A DNA stretch of 32,845 bases from Promethearchaeota archaeon (GCA_048939625.1 JBHLPH010000020.1:1-32845); one strand, 5' to 3'; shown: positions 3,525 to 10,210, numbered from the stretch's first letter. Notes: generated by a model not told the origin, from the sequence alone. A program made the numbers and translations.

Positions 3525-5192
3525 TCATTGACCCATTTTTGGCAGCCAATCCGCAAGAATCTGAAATTCAAAGGCCACACAAGGTGCTTCAATTCCATAA
3601 TTGTGTAAGACAGCAGGATGAATTTCACCAAGTAACCCAAGGCGTTGCCTGCTAATGGTAATATTAGCAACTCGCCCTTTGATGAATGAAGGATGTGAAG
3701 CTTTTGTAACCTTCCCTTTTAGACCAAGGTTGGCTAGTAATGTGAGCAATTCTGCTTTGAGGGCTGTGATATCTACGCGTGAATTAACAATTGCCGCTGC
3801 GAGATTATGAACCGTGTCTGTGCACGTTTCAGCTTGTGGATTCACTTTCACAACTGAACCTAATTCGAACACGCGATGAGGTAGTTCTTGAGCTGTATTT
3901 TCTCCCAAGAAAGCTAAGAGTCCAGGTAGCAACTTGTTACGGGCAAGATGATATTCCATTGATTTGGGATTTGCAATTTCTACAACAGCTTTTTTCGACA
4001 GATTCATCTTCTCAAAGAACACACGGCTGTTGGTTAGAACATAGTTGGTAATTTCTTGATACCCAAGACCTACCATAAGATCACGGATGGTACGTAGCAT
4101 GGTGGTCATGGGAAGTTCTTGTCCAACAGTCATCGTTTGAGGAAGTTCGGGTTCAATTCGATTATATCCGTATCCAATCGCTACATCTTCGATGATATCA
4201 ACGTCGTGGAGGATGTCGACTCGGTAGGCAGGAATGCCAACATGAATAGTTGTTTGATCATGTTTGGCATCCATTCGCATTCTTTTAAGAGCGCGAATGA
4301 TTGCTGGACCACCGAAGTCATAACCAATTGTTCTATTAATGCGGTCTATCGAAACCTCACGTGGTGTTAATGCAAGATTAGGCAATGATTCACGGTGAGT
4401 CGGATAAACAACCTCAACCTCCTCCAATGTCCCTCCTCTCTCCGCTAAGGCGGTAATAACGATATTTAGAGATTGAAGTGCAGTTTGCTTGTGCGTTCCC
4501 GTAACTTCGACAAACACATCTTTTGTCGTTATCAACAACCGACCCAAATCATTACTGTTAATGACAGGGGGTAAACTGAGAACCTTCCCTTCAGCATCGA
4601 CTAAGAGAGGATAACGGGGATGATCTTTGATAATACCTCCGAATTCCTGACCTTTGGGATGATTGCGTAATATCTGTTTTGCAGTGAGTTCCTTATGAAA
4701 TTCTAGGGGTACAAAATGGATGGCATCAGGGAGTTCGGTTCGATAATAAATTGGAGGTGTTATGAGGTCCAGAACATAAAGTCCAATGCTGGTTCGTTTC
4801 CGATTTCGGCCGAAAGTGCTAGTAAGACGTTCTTGGAGTTGCATAAATTCAGCGATTAGGTCATCATCAAGGGTAAGTCCACGGATAATCCCACAGGCAA
4901 GAAAAGGTCGTATCTTTTCCACCGATTTATCAACAATAGCCTGCCATTTGGATTTTTTAATGGGGAATTTTGGTGCTCCGGTTTCGATTTCTAAGAATCC
5001 TTTTAGCGCACGAGCAATGCCCTCGGTAGAGAGCATATCTACTCGATCGGGATTGACCTCAATGGTAGCAACACCATCGTCTATGCGATCTATTTCACAT
5101 TTGATTAAGAACAAGTTTTCTTCTAGTTCTTCAAGGGAGAGGTCTTTTCCGATTAAGTTTTGAAGATCTGTAATGCGTACTTCGACATTCAT
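3525..5192 (-). CDS. pheT: Phenylalanine--tRNA ligase beta subunit (archaeal/eukaryotic type)
   Basis: NPDRVDMLSTEGIAR, RVDILHDVDIIEDVAIGYGY, GEIHP. Start placed at ATG 5192 behind a GAGGTGA Shine-Dalgarno. Confidence 0.96.
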   Translation of the reverse strand: MNVEVRITDLQNLIGKDLSLEELEENLFLIKCEIDRIDDGVATIEVNPDRVDMLSTEGIARALKGFLEIETGAPKFPIKKSKWQAIVDKSVEKIRPFLACGIIRGLTLDDDLIAEFMQLQERLTSTFGRNRKRTSIGLYVLDLITPPIYYRTELPDAIHFVPLEFHKELTAKQILRNHPKGQEFGGIIKDHPRYPLLVDAEGKVLSLPPVINSNDLGRLLITTKDVFVEVTGTHKQTALQSLNIVITALAERGGTLEEVEVVYPTHRESLPNLALTPREVSIDRINRTIGYDFGGPAIIRALKRMRMDAKHDQTTIHVGIPAYRVDILHDVDIIEDVAIGYGYNRIEPELPQTMTVGQELPMTTMLRTIRDLMVGLGYQEITNYVLTNSRVFFEKMNLSKKAVVEIANPKSMEYHLARNKLLPGLLAFLGENTAQELPHRVFELGSVVKVNPQAETCTDTVHNLAAAIVNSRVDITALKAELLTLLANLGLKGKVTKASHPSFIKGRVANITISRQRLGLLGEIHPAVLHNYGIEAPCVAFEFQILADWLPKMGQ

Positions 5193-5205
5193 GGTGTTCA
5201 CCTCA

Positions 5206-6747
5206 TTAAAATCTTAAAGAAGCCCTCCGAAGCCAACCGAGGTCCCGAGTTACTAATTCCCGAATATCATTAATTCTGAGGGCAGCCATGGCTAGGCGGT
5301 CTATACCAATGCCCCAGGCTAGAACTGGAAAGTCGACACCGAGTGGAAGTGTGACTTCCGGGCGGAAAATTCCTCCTGGTAAAGCCTCCTTCCAACCTAG
5401 TCCAGGAATATGAATGAATCCTTCAATGGAGGGTTCCGTGAAGGGGAAGAATCCGGGTTTGAACTTTAATTTTTTAATACCAACTCCCTCTGCGATTGCA
5501 CGAAGATAGCCCATGAGGTCACGGAGTGTAAGTCCTTCACCACCAATAATGCCTTCACACTGATGGAACTCTGCAGAGTGGGTAGCATCAAATTTCTCAG
5601 GACGGAAGTTCCGATCAATACTAAACATGCGTAAAGGTGCTTTCTGGTGCTCAACGAGATAGCGTACAGAGACAGCAGTTGTTTGACTACGCATCACTAA
5701 TTGGCGGGCTATATTGAAATTGTACTTATATTGCCAACCGGTGGACCCCGTTGTCCAACCATTCTCATGGGTTTTGGCTACTTGCTTGAACACTGTTGGA
5801 TTTTGAACTGTACCTAGACATTTGGGTGTTTTAATATGGTACAAATCGTGGACTTCCCGAGCAACGTGATCTTGAGGCATGAAGAGTGCGTCATTATTCC
5901 AAAATTCGAGTTCAACAAGAGGTCCTTGTGCTTCTTGAAATCCTAAGCCGATAAGAATTCGTCGCACCCGATCAATGAATTCAATGTAAGGATGCTTCTT
6001 CCCTGGATAGATAGGTGAAGTTGGTGCTCCAAGATTGTAGGGTAGAAAAGGCCTGTCTTTCCAATTACCTGATTTCAAGAGCGCCGGAGTCAAATCTTGG
6101 ATCATATCCGTTTCTAATGCGGCTCTTTCAAGTGCTTGACTGCCTTTAGCGGTGATGATGTAGGAAACAGTTTGGTGGGTTACAAGTTCGGCAAGTTGAC
6201 GTTTATCTAAATCTTGTTGAACCGATTTCCGAGTTTTAGAGTCGAGTTCAAGTTGATGTTCATTTAGTGTTCCTATTTCTACACCTGCAGTCAGTGCTAG
6301 CTGTAATGGATGATTGGTTGCTGATTTTAGCGCCGTGGGTGTGAGTTGTAACCAAGTTTCTCCTTCACGTTTTGATACCGTTACCCAATTATTCCGACGA
6401 GCCCATCCGAGAGCAAGTTGTTGTTCAGTTGCGTTCAGTAATTTGTCTTTCGCGACTGTTTTTACGGAAGCTTCCCCACCAAGTTTCGAGAGGATTGTGA
6501 CGAGGCGAACTTCAGGAAGTCCAATTTTGGCAAAGTGCTCTCCTTCAGCTGTAAGCTGGTAAAATCGGGTCGTTTGGGTTGCACAGTCTTTAATGAATTT
6601 TTGTGAATGAAGGCTCAGTAAGAGGCTTCTTACCGTGGTTTCGTTGAGAGAAAGAGTTTTTGCGATAGATTTGGCATCGGAAGGTTGATTTGTAGTTTTG
6701 AGATAAGCTAGGATTTGTTGAGCTTTTTTGGAGAGTCTATACTTCAT
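5206..6747 (-). CDS. pheS: Phenylalanine--tRNA ligase alpha subunit (long archaeal type with N-terminal winged helices)
   Basis: FWNNDALFMPQDHVARE, FRPEKFDATHSAEFHQCEG, FPFTEPS, AWGIGIDRLAM; GGAGGA SD at 6751-6756. Confidence 0.97.
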   Translation of the reverse strand: MKYRLSKKAQQILAYLKTTNQPSDAKSIAKTLSLNETTVRSLLLSLHSQKFIKDCATQTTRFYQLTAEGEHFAKIGLPEVRLVTILSKLGGEASVKTVAKDKLLNATEQQLALGWARRNNWVTVSKREGETWLQLTPTALKSATNHPLQLALTAGVEIGTLNEHQLELDSKTRKSVQQDLDKRQLAELVTHQTVSYIITAKGSQALERAALETDMIQDLTPALLKSGNWKDRPFLPYNLGAPTSPIYPGKKHPYIEFIDRVRRILIGLGFQEAQGPLVELEFWNNDALFMPQDHVAREVHDLYHIKTPKCLGTVQNPTVFKQVAKTHENGWTTGSTGWQYKYNFNIARQLVMRSQTTAVSVRYLVEHQKAPLRMFSIDRNFRPEKFDATHSAEFHQCEGIIGGEGLTLRDLMGYLRAIAEGVGIKKLKFKPGFFPFTEPSIEGFIHIPGLGWKEALPGGIFRPEVTLPLGVDFPVLAWGIGIDRLAMAALRINDIRELVTRDLGWLRRASLRF

Positions 6748-6804
6748 CTGTCCTCCATCCTGTATTGTACGTAGAGAACCTGTGGGGCTGCAGAGTGTAT
6801 AAAA

Positions 6805-6858
6805 CTAGGGGAAGAGAAAAAACAATGGTAGATTATAATTGGTGAAATTCCAAGGCAT
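6805..6858 (-). CDS. Putative Phe-rich leader peptide (uORF) of pheST, MPWNFTNYNLPLFFLFP
   Basis: ATG 6858 to TAG 6805; 4 Phe in 17 codons, 3 of them in the last 5. An in-frame ATG at 6885 would give 26 aa. It lies between a TATA-like box and pheS. Confidence 0.5.
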   Translation of the reverse strand: MPWNFTNYNLPLFFLFP

Positions 6859-6901
6859 CAGCCCATCCGTTTCTCGCTGAAGCATCCAGTATTTGCTTCT
6901 C

Positions 6902-6909
6902 TATTTAAA
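6902..6909 (-). promoter_or_regulatory. TATA-like box (TTTAAATA) upstream of the pheS leader
   Basis: Matches the archaeal TTTAWATA consensus in the bax1-pheS intergenic region. Confidence 0.5.
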
Positions 6910-6963
6910 GCATCCGTTTACTCACTGGAAAAGAGTGGTAATAAATCATTACAGCGTGTAAAT

Positions 6964-8244
6964 TCATGGGGGAAGTTCTTTCAAAATTTTACCATAGGGA
7001 ATTTCATACCGGTTGGCTCGTGAGCGATAGAAAACCACGGGATATGGAGCGTTAGTAAACGCTTTCCGATGCTTGGTGTCAACGAGAAGGATCATGTGTT
7101 GAAGCCCTTTTTGTTTTAAAAGCTCTAATTGTGAACATTTCTTTTGGGTGTACTCATCGCGCCAATAGCCAATGATTTCGACTAATACCCGTTCTTCACC
7201 CCGCACAAGGGCAAAATCTGGAATAATCAGTGTGGATCCAAAAATGAATGCTTCAGGTTCACGAATGATATCCCAGCCTCGAAACTTATTGTTGTGCCAA
7301 CTCCAATAGAATTGCTCTTCAACCTTTGAATCAAGGAATGCCTCAGATATCCGTGTTGCACGTGGGGGGTAAAGAACGGGAATCGAGTCAGAATCCAGCT
7401 CCACCGCATATTTTCGATCTCTAAGGATTACATCAATCGAGAGTGATTCTAAATATACACCGAGACTAATGGAGTCTTGTAATAAGCCAGTTATCACTTG
7501 GGCAATATTCCATCCGAATGATGAAGCACGTCCGAAAAATACACGCGGACCGACTATTGTTGCACGAAGCCCCGATGAGACTGATTCAAGGTCAACTAAA
7601 ACACCATAGCGTTTGGTATATTTTAAGAGAGCCCGGGCAGTAGCACCTAGGCTTTTACCACTAATGGAAAGAGTCACAGTGTCGCTGTTGTAGAGAAGCG
7701 TTTCCAGTATTTCATAATTATACCCACCAATGGCATTTTCTGCAGAGGGGAGGGAATTATTTCTTTGGAGACGTGTTTCTTCGTCGCGATGAGCTGTAAG
7801 TAGAGAAGCAATTACATCAGAAGGCAAATTGAGGGTTTGAGCTACTTCAGTGAATATCTTAGGGCGCTTTTCTCGTGTAAAGAATCCACCATATTTGGTT
7901 TGGATAAATTGCCAATACCAAAGGCGGAATGCCTCCAACGAATCGATGCCATGACGGCGAATCTCACCTAGCTGCGAGTCCTCTAATAATCCAGTCAATT
8001 CTTGCTGTGAAAATGAATAGAATCGATTGAACAGAGTCGCAAATAAAGCGCGTACCACTCGATTATCTGGCGCCCAAGTCAAAGGAGTATCCAAGTCAAG
8101 ATTCCCTCTTCTTTTCCCCAGATTGCTTTCGAGGTATTCGATTAAGCGTTGGGGGAGTGCTTGGTCTTTGGGAAAGATGAGAAAATAAGGAAGCAGAGAG
8201 GAACCTCTTATCTGATATTTAAGATATTGTAGTCGCAAGACCAT
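6964..8244 (-). CDS. DUF790-family endonuclease (Bax1-like, XPB partner)
   Basis: C-terminal PD-(D/E)xK-type nuclease motifs DSKVEEQF, WDIIREPE, IPDF and VEIIGYWRDEY. Start placed at ATG 8244 behind GAGGT. Confidence 0.85.
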   Translation of the reverse strand: MVLRLQYLKYQIRGSSLLPYFLIFPKDQALPQRLIEYLESNLGKRRGNLDLDTPLTWAPDNRVVRALFATLFNRFYSFSQQELTGLLEDSQLGEIRRHGIDSLEAFRLWYWQFIQTKYGGFFTREKRPKIFTEVAQTLNLPSDVIASLLTAHRDEETRLQRNNSLPSAENAIGGYNYEILETLLYNSDTVTLSISGKSLGATARALLKYTKRYGVLVDLESVSSGLRATIVGPRVFFGRASSFGWNIAQVITGLLQDSISLGVYLESLSIDVILRDRKYAVELDSDSIPVLYPPRATRISEAFLDSKVEEQFYWSWHNNKFRGWDIIREPEAFIFGSTLIIPDFALVRGEERVLVEIIGYWRDEYTQKKCSQLELLKQKGLQHMILLVDTKHRKAFTNAPYPVVFYRSRANRYEIPYGKILKELPP

Positions 8245-8266: not shown

Positions 8267-10210
8267 TTAGTGGATACTATCATCTATGAGTGTGCCTAGT
8301 TCAAGAAGGCGTAAACCTTGACCTCCACGGACATAGATACGGCTGCTTCCTGTTGGGTCGGAATGGATGAGTGCAAAGATGCGGTATCGTTCCTTGAGAC
8401 TTGGAGGTGGATCGGTGACCCGGAATTTTCCTTCCCCGAGCTTTACTTGTTCACCCCCCTTGGCTTTTTCTTCCTGAAGAACGCCTTGAATGAGTAATGC
8501 AATATTCCAAGTTAATCGGCGGCTACGACAGATGAGGATGCTTCCTTGGAGGAGCACGGTATCTACTCGATCAATGACAGTTAGCCAATCTTGTAAATCA
8601 GGGTGAAGCTTATCCGCTGCTAGACTTTTTTCAGTAAAGTGCTCCAAAGGTGCTTCGGCGGTTTCAGAAAGTTCTGCCTTTAACGCTTCCACAGAGGTTG
8701 TGTCGTGATCAAGTTCTTGCAACCATTTCAGCAAGTTAGAAGAAATCGCTTCAAATTCCTCGTTTCGTTGACGCCCTTCAGCATAATAGACGAGAATCAT
8801 TCGCTGAAGAACAGGTTCCAAGACCTCTGATATTTCAAAGTACTGAATGATTAGAAGCACTTGGTTGAGGAGTTTCCAAGCCTCGTCAAACCGTCGGAGG
8901 GCAAAATAAATTGATGAAAGGTCAATAAGAAACCGAATCACCTCTTCGGGATCGGTAATAGAAGGAAATTCGGTTGAGGTAATTTCCCCACGAATTACTA
9001 AGAGTGCTAGATAGAGAGCTTGAGCTGTGGCCTGCTCATGGACAAATCCCCAGTCCTGGGTTTTACGAGCGAATATTGTAAAATACATCGTCGCGGATTC
9101 AAAATCCTCAAGCAGTAAATTAATCGTGATACGAAGGATATGCGTCATAACCATTAAGCGCTGATAAGTGGATGCATCCGGTCGAACGCTAAGTAAAATT
9201 CTATTGCATTCATCAATGGCTTGTTTTGATTTCTCTAAATCGCCCCGTTCGCCGAGATAGAGATAGCAAAGAGCCATCAGATAATTGATAAGCACTAAAT
9301 CGGGGGCTATTTGGCGTATTAATCTACGATGAGCTGTAGCAGAGAGTTCCCAAGATAGGAGTACAAGGTGATTATAGAGTTCTTGGCGAGCTTCATCAAT
9401 TTCTTTGAGTACTTCTCGATAATTCTGCTCTTGGATTTTATTAACATAGCTTGCATAATTACGTCGAAGCTCTTGGAGAAAATTGAGTAAGCCCAAGGCT
9501 TCTTGATCAGTCATTCCCACAAGATCTTCTTCCGCAATCCTAGGGCCTCTCAGAGAACGGACAACGTGAAAGGCTTGGTTTTCAATAAGCTTGATACGAG
9601 TGGTGGGATCGTACACACTCCGGCGGGTGATACTGTATTTAATCTCGGTATGTAGGACTCGTTCACGAATTTCTTCCAGAAATGCAGTGTCCTCTGAGTT
9701 ATTATAGCTGCGTTCGAGTAGGTGTAGTAGAAAAGCACTTCCCATTAAGCCCTCAATTTCTGGTTCAAGATTTCGGAGAGATTGGAGAAGTTGAAAATCG
9801 GAACTTACTAATCGATTCTCTTTGAGTTTTTTCAAGACTATAAGCAGAGATAAATCTGGGGCTTGAGGAATCCGCTCAACAAAGTCCTTGGCTTTATCTA
9901 TATAGGAAGCTAATTCCTTGGGAGTAACCTCGATTAACTCAACAACTTTTTGAACTTGGCGATGAAGGGGTCCTCTTAGCTCTTCCAGAATTTGAGGGGA
10001 CGTATAAAGCTTAAAGGACACTCGGTCAGCGATTTCCTTGAAACGAAGGAGTGCTTTAGGATTCTGAGCAAATGCGAGAATGAAGAAATTTGCATCTACC
10101 GCAACGCGGGACCACCGCTTTGGTTGAGTACTCGGTGGTGCAGAAGTTTTCAATTTTCGTTTTTTCGAGCTTTTTGACGAGGCCCCACGAGAGGAAGTAG
10201 TTTTTGACAC
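8267..10210 (-). CDS. PIN-domain protein with long alpha-helical (TPR-like) region and beta-rich C-terminal domain
   Basis: PIN acidic motifs VAVDANFF, TSPQILEEL, PDLSLL and LVSSD; amphipathic helical repeats in the middle; Ser/Lys-rich N-tail. Confidence 0.75.
   Translation of the reverse strand: MSKTTSSRGASSKSSKKRKLKTSAPPSTQPKRWSRVAVDANFFILAFAQNPKALLRFKEIADRVSFKLYTSPQILEELRGPLHRQVQKVVELIEVTPKELASYIDKAKDFVERIPQAPDLSLLIVLKKLKENRLVSSDFQLLQSLRNLEPEIEGLMGSAFLLHLLERSYNNSEDTAFLEEIRERVLHTEIKYSITRRSVYDPTTRIKLIENQAFHVVRSLRGPRIAEEDLVGMTDQEALGLLNFLQELRRNYASYVNKIQEQNYREVLKEIDEARQELYNHLVLLSWELSATAHRRLIRQIAPDLVLINYLMALCYLYLGERGDLEKSKQAIDECNRILLSVRPDASTYQRLMVMTHILRITINLLLEDFESATMYFTIFARKTQDWGFVHEQATAQALYLALLVIRGEITSTEFPSITDPEEVIRFLIDLSSIYFALRRFDEAWKLLNQVLLIIQYFEISEVLEPVLQRMILVYYAEGRQRNEEFEAISSNLLKWLQELDHDTTSVEALKAELSETAEAPLEHFTEKSLAADKLHPDLQDWLTVIDRVDTVLLQGSILICRSRRLTWNIALLIQGVLQEEKAKGGEQVKLGEGKFRVTDPPPSLKERYRIFALIHSDPTGSSRIYVRGGQGLRLLELGTLIDDSIH

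Follow-up and report, generated by a model that had tools for sequence, protein, structure and literature searches.

How archaea match the levels of their aminoacyl-tRNA synthetases (aaRS) to demand is, to our knowledge, essentially unknown, and both T-boxes and attenuation by leader peptides are viewed as devices of bacteria. The question is raised by the leader of pheST, the genes for the α- and β-subunits of phenylalanyl-tRNA synthetase (PheRS), on a stretch of 32,845 nucleotides (nt) from Promethearchaeota archaeon (GCA_048939625.1 JBHLPH010000020.1:1-32845), here called the window, whose genome belongs to the lineage Hermodarchaeota of the Asgard archaea. An earlier reading, made from the sequence alone (the sequence-only reading), had seen in this leader an upstream open reading frame (uORF) ending in Phe codons and had proposed that a ribosome stalled on these codons would switch pheS on. 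In this study, we propose that the 131-nt leader would serve as a ribosome-read sensor of Phe-tRNA(Phe) through +1 frameshifting at a hungry Phe codon, in the manner of the release factor 2 (RF2) gene prfB, with coupling to pheS by termination and reinitiation. This is the reading towards which we lean, without regarding it as secure. It is based on a conserved promoter, ATG and Phe codon, the covariation of a leader helix (P1), a +1 frame free of stops, and the repetition of the design before trpS and proS.

The leader lies on the minus strand, in a 216-nt spacer from the end of a DUF790/Bax1 gene (6964) to the start of pheS (6747). The sequence-only reading had correctly located on this strand the TATA box, the uORF, TCTTCC, the GGAGGA of the pheS Shine-Dalgarno (SD) sequence and the pheS ATG, 57 nt beyond the uORF stop, and its naming of pheST and of the upstream bax1 gene was confirmed with Pfam (DUF790/Bax1, pheS, pheT) and NCBIfam. 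For comparison, 21 pheS leaders of the Hermod family (f1) were collected from 14 same-genus genomes, two same-family genomes and five metagenome contigs. The TATA box, the transcription factor B recognition element (BRE)-like sequence AAACGGAT, the ATG and the block GGATGGGCTGATGCCTTGGAATTTC were invariant or nearly so across the 21 leaders. The TATA box TTTAAATA was likewise invariant or nearly so, and the BRE-like sequence conserved, in two alignments of 16 (A1) and 21 (A2) leaders. The CA column at the predicted transcription start was near-invariant in A1, and the GGA of the pheS SD was invariant in both alignments. The uORF is more than a chance reading frame on this comparison, because the promoter, the ATG and the codons for MPWNF are near-invariant while the remaining leader sequence is only about 49% identical between dereplicated members. 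A leader ORF with a Phe codon was thus found in the orthologous leaders, 19 of 21 of which had Phe as codon 5, as the sequence-only reading had anticipated; the conserved Phe codon was codon 5, however, and not one of the terminal TTT TTT CTC TTC. Conservation of the zero frame was limited to MPWNF, and its total length ranged from 5 to 34 codons in the relatives. Very probably, the leader ORF reports the supply of Phe-tRNA through the ribosome.

From the Phe codon onwards, the +1 frame was open for 30–39 codons in all 21 Hermod-family leaders, and over about 660 codons per frame there were 30, 0 and 45 stops in the zero, +1 and −1 frames, respectively. In shuffled sequences, the probability of finding no stop was about 0.23 per leader, which multiplies to 3e-9 for the 13 leaders left after dereplication (mean identity 49%). 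The open frame ended in the TGA of ATGA or GTGA in 12 of the 21 leaders and between −4 and +20 in the others, and the start context of pheS was ATGA or GTGA throughout the family (21/21). This conserved stop-free frame reaching the pheS start had gone unnoticed in the sequence-only reading. Most leaders had no canonical start codon in it, and the way into it from upstream is barred by a TGA that overlaps the uORF ATG. The base 3′ of TTC varied among A, T, C and G, as befits the third position of a TCN Ser codon in the +1 frame. The −1 frame closed within two to four codons in all 21 leaders, and its stop was TAA, TGA or TAG at one place in the alignment, which suggests selection for a stop at that position.

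A plausible course of events can be drawn from these features. Transcription would start near 6878 from the conserved BRE/TATA promoter, and ribosomes would begin translation on the ATG at 6858, with Met-Pro-Trp-Asn as the first residues. With ample charged tRNA(Phe), the TTC codon (6846-6844) would be decoded, the short zero frame would be finished and the ribosomes would leave. With charged tRNA(Phe) scarce, the A site would stand empty and the ribosome could shift by +1, reading AAT TTC A as AAT-t-TCA. The shifted ribosome would then read the 33-codon stop-free frame across the leader, terminate at the TGA of ATGA (6747-6744) and reinitiate there, and PheRS synthesis would rise. Such hungry-codon reading would act as negative feedback, because the tRNA for this codon is the substrate of the enzyme encoded downstream. 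We infer translation and frameshifting, the dependence of the shift on Phe-tRNA and the subsequent reinitiation from the compared sequences.

The same design was found before two further synthetase genes on contig C3 of this genome (G000). The trpS leader resembled that of pheS in layout, with a TATA box, a covarying helix (GGTAGT/GCTACC; GGTCGT/ACGACC in this genome), a uORF of the form M-x-G-D-x-F-W- with an invariant TTT TGG, and a pyrimidine tract CTGTTCTCTTC with a complementary purine tract AAGAAGAG; in this genome the uORF reads ATG AAA GGC GAT TGT TTT TGG CCA AAT CCA TAA. From TGG, the +1 frame was open for 55–56 codons (32 in the shorter leader of G011) in 12 of 12 genomes of the genus and closed 8–22 nt past the trpS ATG, with 60, 0 and 61 stops per frame. 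In the proS leader (gene identity TIGR00408), the uORF had the form M-x-G-V-x-F-P, in which TTT CCY was invariant in 14 of 14 family genomes with synonymous CCT and CCC, and it was flanked by the helix TTGAGCAG/CTGCTCAA. Its +1 frame was open for 32–38 codons in 14 of 14 genomes and mostly ended in the TGA of the ATGA at the proS start (32, 2 and 41 stops per frame). At both sites the P-site TTT would re-pair perfectly after a +1 slip (TTT to TTT or TTC), and an SD-like element, AGGCGAT in trpS and AGGTGTT in proS, lies 3 nt upstream, as judged against the 16S rRNA 3′ end GGATCACCTCCT of a congener genome (this metagenome-assembled genome is without 16S rRNA). The codon at the junction is cognate to the gene in each case: TTC before pheS, TGG before trpS and CCY before proS. 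Tyrosyl-tRNA synthetase (tyrS) and seven other aaRS genes that were examined had short leaders and no such ORF. The string 'YFY' 5′ of tyrS was rejected as leader codons, being only a TATA box read as codons.

Beyond Hermodarchaeota, the pheS upstream regions of 40 further Asgard genomes were examined. Short SD-led uORFs with Phe at codon 5 or 6 occurred in four Asgard families besides that of Hermod (f6, f14, f5 and f21), namely in all 26 leaders of f6, f14 and f5 and also in f21, and the distance from ATG to TTY was 12 or 15 nt without exception in the sampled families. All 21 sampled genomes of f6, from 17 genera, carried an SD sequence AGGTGA 7–8 nt 5′ of the ATG, then 3–4 codons and CAA TTT. 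The f6 peptides included MYRQFTSL and MDNRQFTSTP, and the unit lay 85–115 nt 5′ of pheS. The uORFs of f14 and f5 encoded MPCQF and MPYQFQ, and that of f21 began MPWTF; f21 showed the +1 design of Hermod, with 50 open codons. In f6, f14 and f5, a long frame was open for 30–63 codons and the stops numbered 65, 50 and 0, the stop-free frame being −1 relative to the ATG and in the same phase as that of Hermod on the shared AAUUU motif. This frame ended at the pheS start or close to it; in f6 the distance was at most about 12 nt, and in f14 the start codon is uncertain. A probable HNFF variant was seen in f7, and the single f9 genome had one Phe-rich upstream ORF. Such a uORF was not seen in f15, f17, f18, f23, f26, f27 and f28 (1–4 genomes each, by listing of ATG-ORFs or a scan for Phe-rich ORFs), nor was a Trp-codon uORF found when the 300 nt 5′ of trpS were inspected in five genomes, four of f6 and one of f14. 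Many f6 leaders (L055-L073) also had the uORF stop in the loop of a small hairpin followed by a pyrimidine tract, with stems that differed between genera (GCCC-GAUA-GGGC, CCCC-AUGA-GGGG and UCACU-AUAGCA-AGUGA), and f6 leaders shared a near-invariant GGAGTTYTGA 12–17 nt 5′ of the pheS ATG.

A shift at the codon is the best explanation of these leaders because a startless, stop-free frame that reaches from the cognate codon, inside an SD-led mini-ORF, to the synthetase start recurs in four independent leader sets. Whether Asgard archaea autoregulate at least three aaRS genes (pheS, trpS and proS) by hungry-codon frameshifting into a stop-free frame reaching the start is, in our judgement, an evenly balanced matter. 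Several observations weigh against frameshifting. The long frame of f6, f14 and f5 is −1 relative to the uORF ATG, and related leaders would therefore need opposite directions of shift. The long frame had no codon-position or synonymous bias (a synonymous share of 14% vs 12% and 11%), so that the absence of stops is its sole coding signal, and in this genome it contains three Phe codons of its own. At the pheS site, the P-site tRNA(Asn) would re-pair at two of three positions (1 and 3) after a +1 slip from AAT to ATT, and an SD-like stimulator was not evident. Because AAUUU is fixed and the ATG is out of phase with the long frame, Phe would turn up in the ATG frame almost automatically, and the cognate argument therefore falls mainly on trpS and proS. 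Specificity is not clean either, since an invariant Trp codon is present in the Hermod pheS leader, and those of trpS and proS each contain an invariant Phe codon.

The poor re-pairing at the pheS site would agree with a leader in which the ribosome paused at Phe codon 5 is itself the signal and no frameshift takes place. The paused ribosome could hold P1 open, shield the 5′ end from 5′-to-3′ decay or block a termination factor, and the long frame would be entered by other means, such as weak initiation at the conserved ATT inside AAUUU, or reinitiation. The Phe codon lies just 3′ of the 5′ strand of P1, and a ribosome paused there would therefore cover the ATG and part of P1; moreover, f1 and f6 agree in that the shared AAUUU is divided as A-ATT-T by the long frame. 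Stalling without a shift nevertheless leaves unexplained why, in each of four independent sets of leaders, a startless frame is kept free of stops over precisely the stretch between the sensor codon and the aaRS start. The ATT is ATC in two trpS leaders and its nearest SD-like sequence is at least 13 nt away, and the cognate TGG and CCY after the slippery TTT of trpS and proS fit frameshifting better. Leaders of Hermod (21) and f6 (20) were folded, both alone and together with 33 nt of pheS, and blocking a ribosome footprint at codon 5 left the predicted accessibility of the ribosome-binding site (RBS) of pheS as before (0.53 to 0.48, 0.41 to 0.42 and 0.47 to 0.45). We regard a stall-only signal as unlikely.

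The RNA itself is also constrained. In helix P1, the region of the uORF start is base-paired to a segment that lies about 65 nt further 3′, inside the long frame and 37 nt before pheS. With columns 90-98 of A2 as partner, 92.6% of cells were paired, vs 25–52% when the partner was slid, and cognate P1 duplexes were better than non-cognate ones (p=0.0008, f1). Most changes in P1 were from C to U and kept a G-U pair, a double change from C-G to U-A was present in two family-level leaders, and P1 was part of the minimum free energy (MFE) structure in 11 of 14 genus leaders. In f6, an analogue of P1 spans the SD-proximal region of the uORF, the ATG and codons 2–4, with −18.3 kcal/mol for cognate vs −14.3 kcal/mol for non-cognate duplexes (p=1e-4). 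Because P1 covaries, the uORF start and the site 37 nt before pheS belong to one RNA, and P1 probably gates initiation at the uORF.

Covariation of this kind would be expected too if the invariant block bound a protein (PheRS or a transcription factor) or tRNA(Phe) as an untranslated RNA or DNA element, with the ORFs incidental; for tRNA(Phe), this would be a T-box-like element with UUC as specifier. The synonymous positions of codons 2–5 (CCT, AAT, TTC) showed zero variation, which indicates a constraint at the nucleotide level. The stop-free frames, the whole-codon indels between ATG and TTY, the conserved spacing of the SD in f6, the synonymous CCT/CCC in proS and the stop-start overlaps are, on the other hand, signatures of translation. 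A search of 6600-7100 against Rfam (cmscan, E<=10) gave two chance-level matches only, ARAGORN found zero tRNA or tRNA-like genes in the window, there was no tRNA-like fold, and the motif was single-copy, with no second copy in the genome at up to three mismatches. As regards a T-box, there was no Rfam match and the UGG adjoining UUC was absent from the f6, f14 and f5 leaders. Readings of the invariant block as a K-turn, box C/D, bulge-helix-bulge (BHB) intron or Sm site were tried by eye and rejected, the required partner motifs being missing. An untranslated element is improbable in our assessment.

With P1 as the conserved structure, the switch put forward by the sequence-only reading can be weighed. 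There, a ribosome stalled on the terminal TTT TTT CTC TTC would cover an anti-SD sequence, TCTTCC, and an oligo-U tract, and thus free the pheS SD or prevent termination. The pairing of UCUUCC with GGAGGA does exist in this genome (a duplex of about −9 kcal/mol), and nine close relatives keep a zero frame of 17–18 codons ending L-F/L-F/L-L-x-P-stop, in which synonymous changes make up 30%, vs 14% and 22% in the other frames. The pairing was, however, no better than that of tracts and SD sequences combined across species: cognate and non-cognate duplexes both averaged −8.0 kcal/mol (p=0.5; 0.5–0.7 over the comparisons), and the nearest relative, G003, is without it. The terminal Phe run, the Pro-stop and the T6 tract were confined to the subclade of nine, with T6 in two of the 21 leaders; Phe at codons 13, 14 and 16 was restricted to close relatives, and the zero frame is MPWNF-stop in G011 and 11 codons long in M097. 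The tract is pyrimidine-rich in all leaders, but no covarying partner for it was found. Duplexes of the pyrimidine tract with the SD, the pre-SD region with the SD, the P1 3′ strand with the SD and the 5′ leader with the pyrimidine tract did not differ between cognate and non-cognate pairs (p=0.5–0.9, main-RBS partners), and RNAalifold on the leader alignment returned only an invariant hairpin of 4 bp. The MFE z-score of the leader was about 0, the stability being no greater than that of shuffles, and a sigma-70 promoter and terminator scan gave zero terminator-like sites. The pheS RBS had an unpaired probability of about 0.4–0.5, and blocking a footprint on the terminal Phe run moved its accessibility from 0.50 to 0.50. 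An anti-SD switch and an oligo-U terminator are hence unsupported, since neither covariation, nor an effect of the footprint, nor a terminator-like site was found, and we consider regulation by the terminal codons highly improbable.

The positions of the features are collected in Table 1.

Table 1. Features of the pheST leader and genes in the window, and of the trpS and proS leaders on contig C3 of the same genome.
Feature	Position	Strand	Remarks
BRE-like element AAACGGATGC	6919-6910	−	Putative promoter element, by the archaeal promoter consensus
TATA box TTTAAATA	6909-6902	−	Putative promoter element, by the archaeal promoter consensus
Predicted transcription start	~6878 (6876..6880)	−	A of CA, ~24 nt past TATA; predicted position
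Helix P1, 5′ strand GGGCTGATG	6864-6856	−	Contains the uORF ATG
Zero-frame uORF MPWNFTNYNLPLFFLFP-stop (ATG..TAG)	6858-6805	−	Codons 1–5 conserved in the family
Phe codon 5 (TTC; site AAT TTC A)	6846-6844	−	Putative sensor codon; would be the site of the shift
Long +1 frame, 33 sense codons (SPIIIYHC...RMEDR)	6845-6744	−	Ends in TGA 6746-6744, overlapping the pheS ATG (ATGA)
TAA closing the −1 frame	6835-6833	−	4 codons past the Phe codon
Pyrimidine tract TTGTTTTTTCTCTTCCCC	6825-6808	−	Includes TCTTCC 6815-6810 and T6
Helix P1, 3′ strand CTGCAGCCC	6793-6785	−	Six pairs in this genome: 6864-6859 with 6790-6785
pheS SD GGAGGA	6756-6751	−	Complementary to the congener 16S rRNA 3′ end GGATCACCTCCT
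pheS (PheRS alpha, 513 aa)	5206..6747 (ATG 6747-6745)	−	Pfam PF01409; NCBIfam NF003210, 527 bits
pheT (PheRS beta, 558 aa)	3525..5201	−	Pfam PF17759, PF03484; 4 nt 3′ of pheS
trpS leader (locus L117)	G000 contig C3, ~6898-6722	−	uORF MKGDCFWPNP-stop
proS leader (loci L137, L146)	G000 contig C3, ~41363-41497	+	uORF MIGVYFPNCLRIN-stop

At 6866-6856 on the minus strand of the window, a mini-ORF of two codons (ATG GGC TGA) stands in the phase of the long frame, its TGA overlapping the uORF ATG (TGATG); it was kept within the genus and had no counterpart in the sister genus. The gene 5′ of the pheS leader is the DUF790/Bax1 gene (Pfam), and 5′ of this, at 8267-10210 on the minus strand, lies an ORF of 647 aa with no Pfam match at E<=0.001. 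Elsewhere in the genome, at locus L139 (G000 contig C38), a sequence like a tRNA 3′ end, GGTTCGAATCCC...CACCA, was seen directly 5′ of an aaRS gene of class II. Among the 16S rRNA matches of the genus, a single one was full-length (locus L166, G005 contig C71:619-4212); it probably carries large insertions or introns, because it spans about 3.6 kb for a model of 1478 positions.

In accordance with the remark in the sequence-only reading that leader-peptide attenuation is poorly documented in archaea, our literature searches found no published archaeal precedent: they returned archaeal uORFs from ribosome profiling, and no aaRS leader peptide, amino-acid-sensing leader or regulatory frameshift. 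A 2021 review (PMC8211752) lists a single programmed frameshift for archaea, the −1 frameshift of Saccharolobus solfataricus fucA1. It would share with the pheST leader the character of a programmed ribosomal frameshift in an archaeon, but it unites two halves of an enzyme, with a heptamer as slippery site, runs in the −1 direction, does not belong to a regulatory leader and has no link to tRNA charging. If the three synthetase genes are autoregulated in this way, the device would be a natural aminoacyl-tRNA-sensing frameshift switch, and the first +1 programmed frameshift as well as the first amino-acid-sensing leader described in archaea. If confirmed, it would provide a sense-codon version of the RF2 feedback loop, would show that archaea related to the eukaryotes also sense amino acids through the ribosome, and would help annotators to find more such leaders by looking for frames that stay open between a codon and the start that follows. 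The proposed element is compact and testable, consisting of a promoter, an ATG, a sensor codon, a stop-free shifted frame and a stop that overlaps the start. Three synthetase genes are preceded by it, each with its own cognate codon, and several Asgard families have it.

Several known systems share parts of this design. In the translational attenuation of ermC and cat, a drug-paused ribosome on a leader ORF alters the pairing of the leader RNA, and P1 similarly involves the initiation region of the leader ORF. In the pheST leader, however, no covarying helix lies over the main RBS, which is about half open with or without a footprint, and the trigger would be an amino-acid codon and not a drug. 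The leader-peptide transcription attenuators pheM-pheST and pheL-pheA of Escherichia coli likewise place a short leader ORF with Phe codons before Phe-related genes, including pheST, and let the ribosome read the supply of Phe-tRNA. They differ in that the archaeal leader has one conserved Phe codon instead of a run, has neither a terminator hairpin with a U tract nor alternative terminator and antiterminator pairings, has no Rfam match, and has as its conserved structure a long-range helix that holds the uORF start. Antizyme (OAZ1) is a eukaryotic +1 frameshift that senses polyamines; here, too, a metabolite-dependent +1 shift serves as a feedback sensor and poor re-pairing in the P site is tolerated, although the shift is eukaryotic, occurs at a stop codon, yields a fused protein and responds to another ligand.

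The likeness on which our reading draws is to E. coli prfB, in which RF2 controls its own synthesis by a +1 programmed frameshift at AGGGGG-UAU-CUU-UGA-C. In both, the zero frame is short and closes a little way past the site, decoding in the A site is slow when the gene's own product is scarce (for the synthetases, the codon would be decoded slowly at low product) and the +1 shift raises, or would raise, that product; the trpS and proS leaders in addition have a P-site codon that is slippery and, 3 nt upstream, an SD-like element. In prfB the slow codon is a stop codon and the +1 frame is that of the regulated protein itself, whereas in the archaeal leaders the slow codon would be a sense codon for the tRNA that the enzyme charges, and the +1 frame is a separate leader ORF of 30–56 codons joined to the gene by a stop-start overlap. 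The archaeal host, the pheS site without a good slip or an SD-like stimulator, and the families that would need a −1 shift are further differences from prfB.
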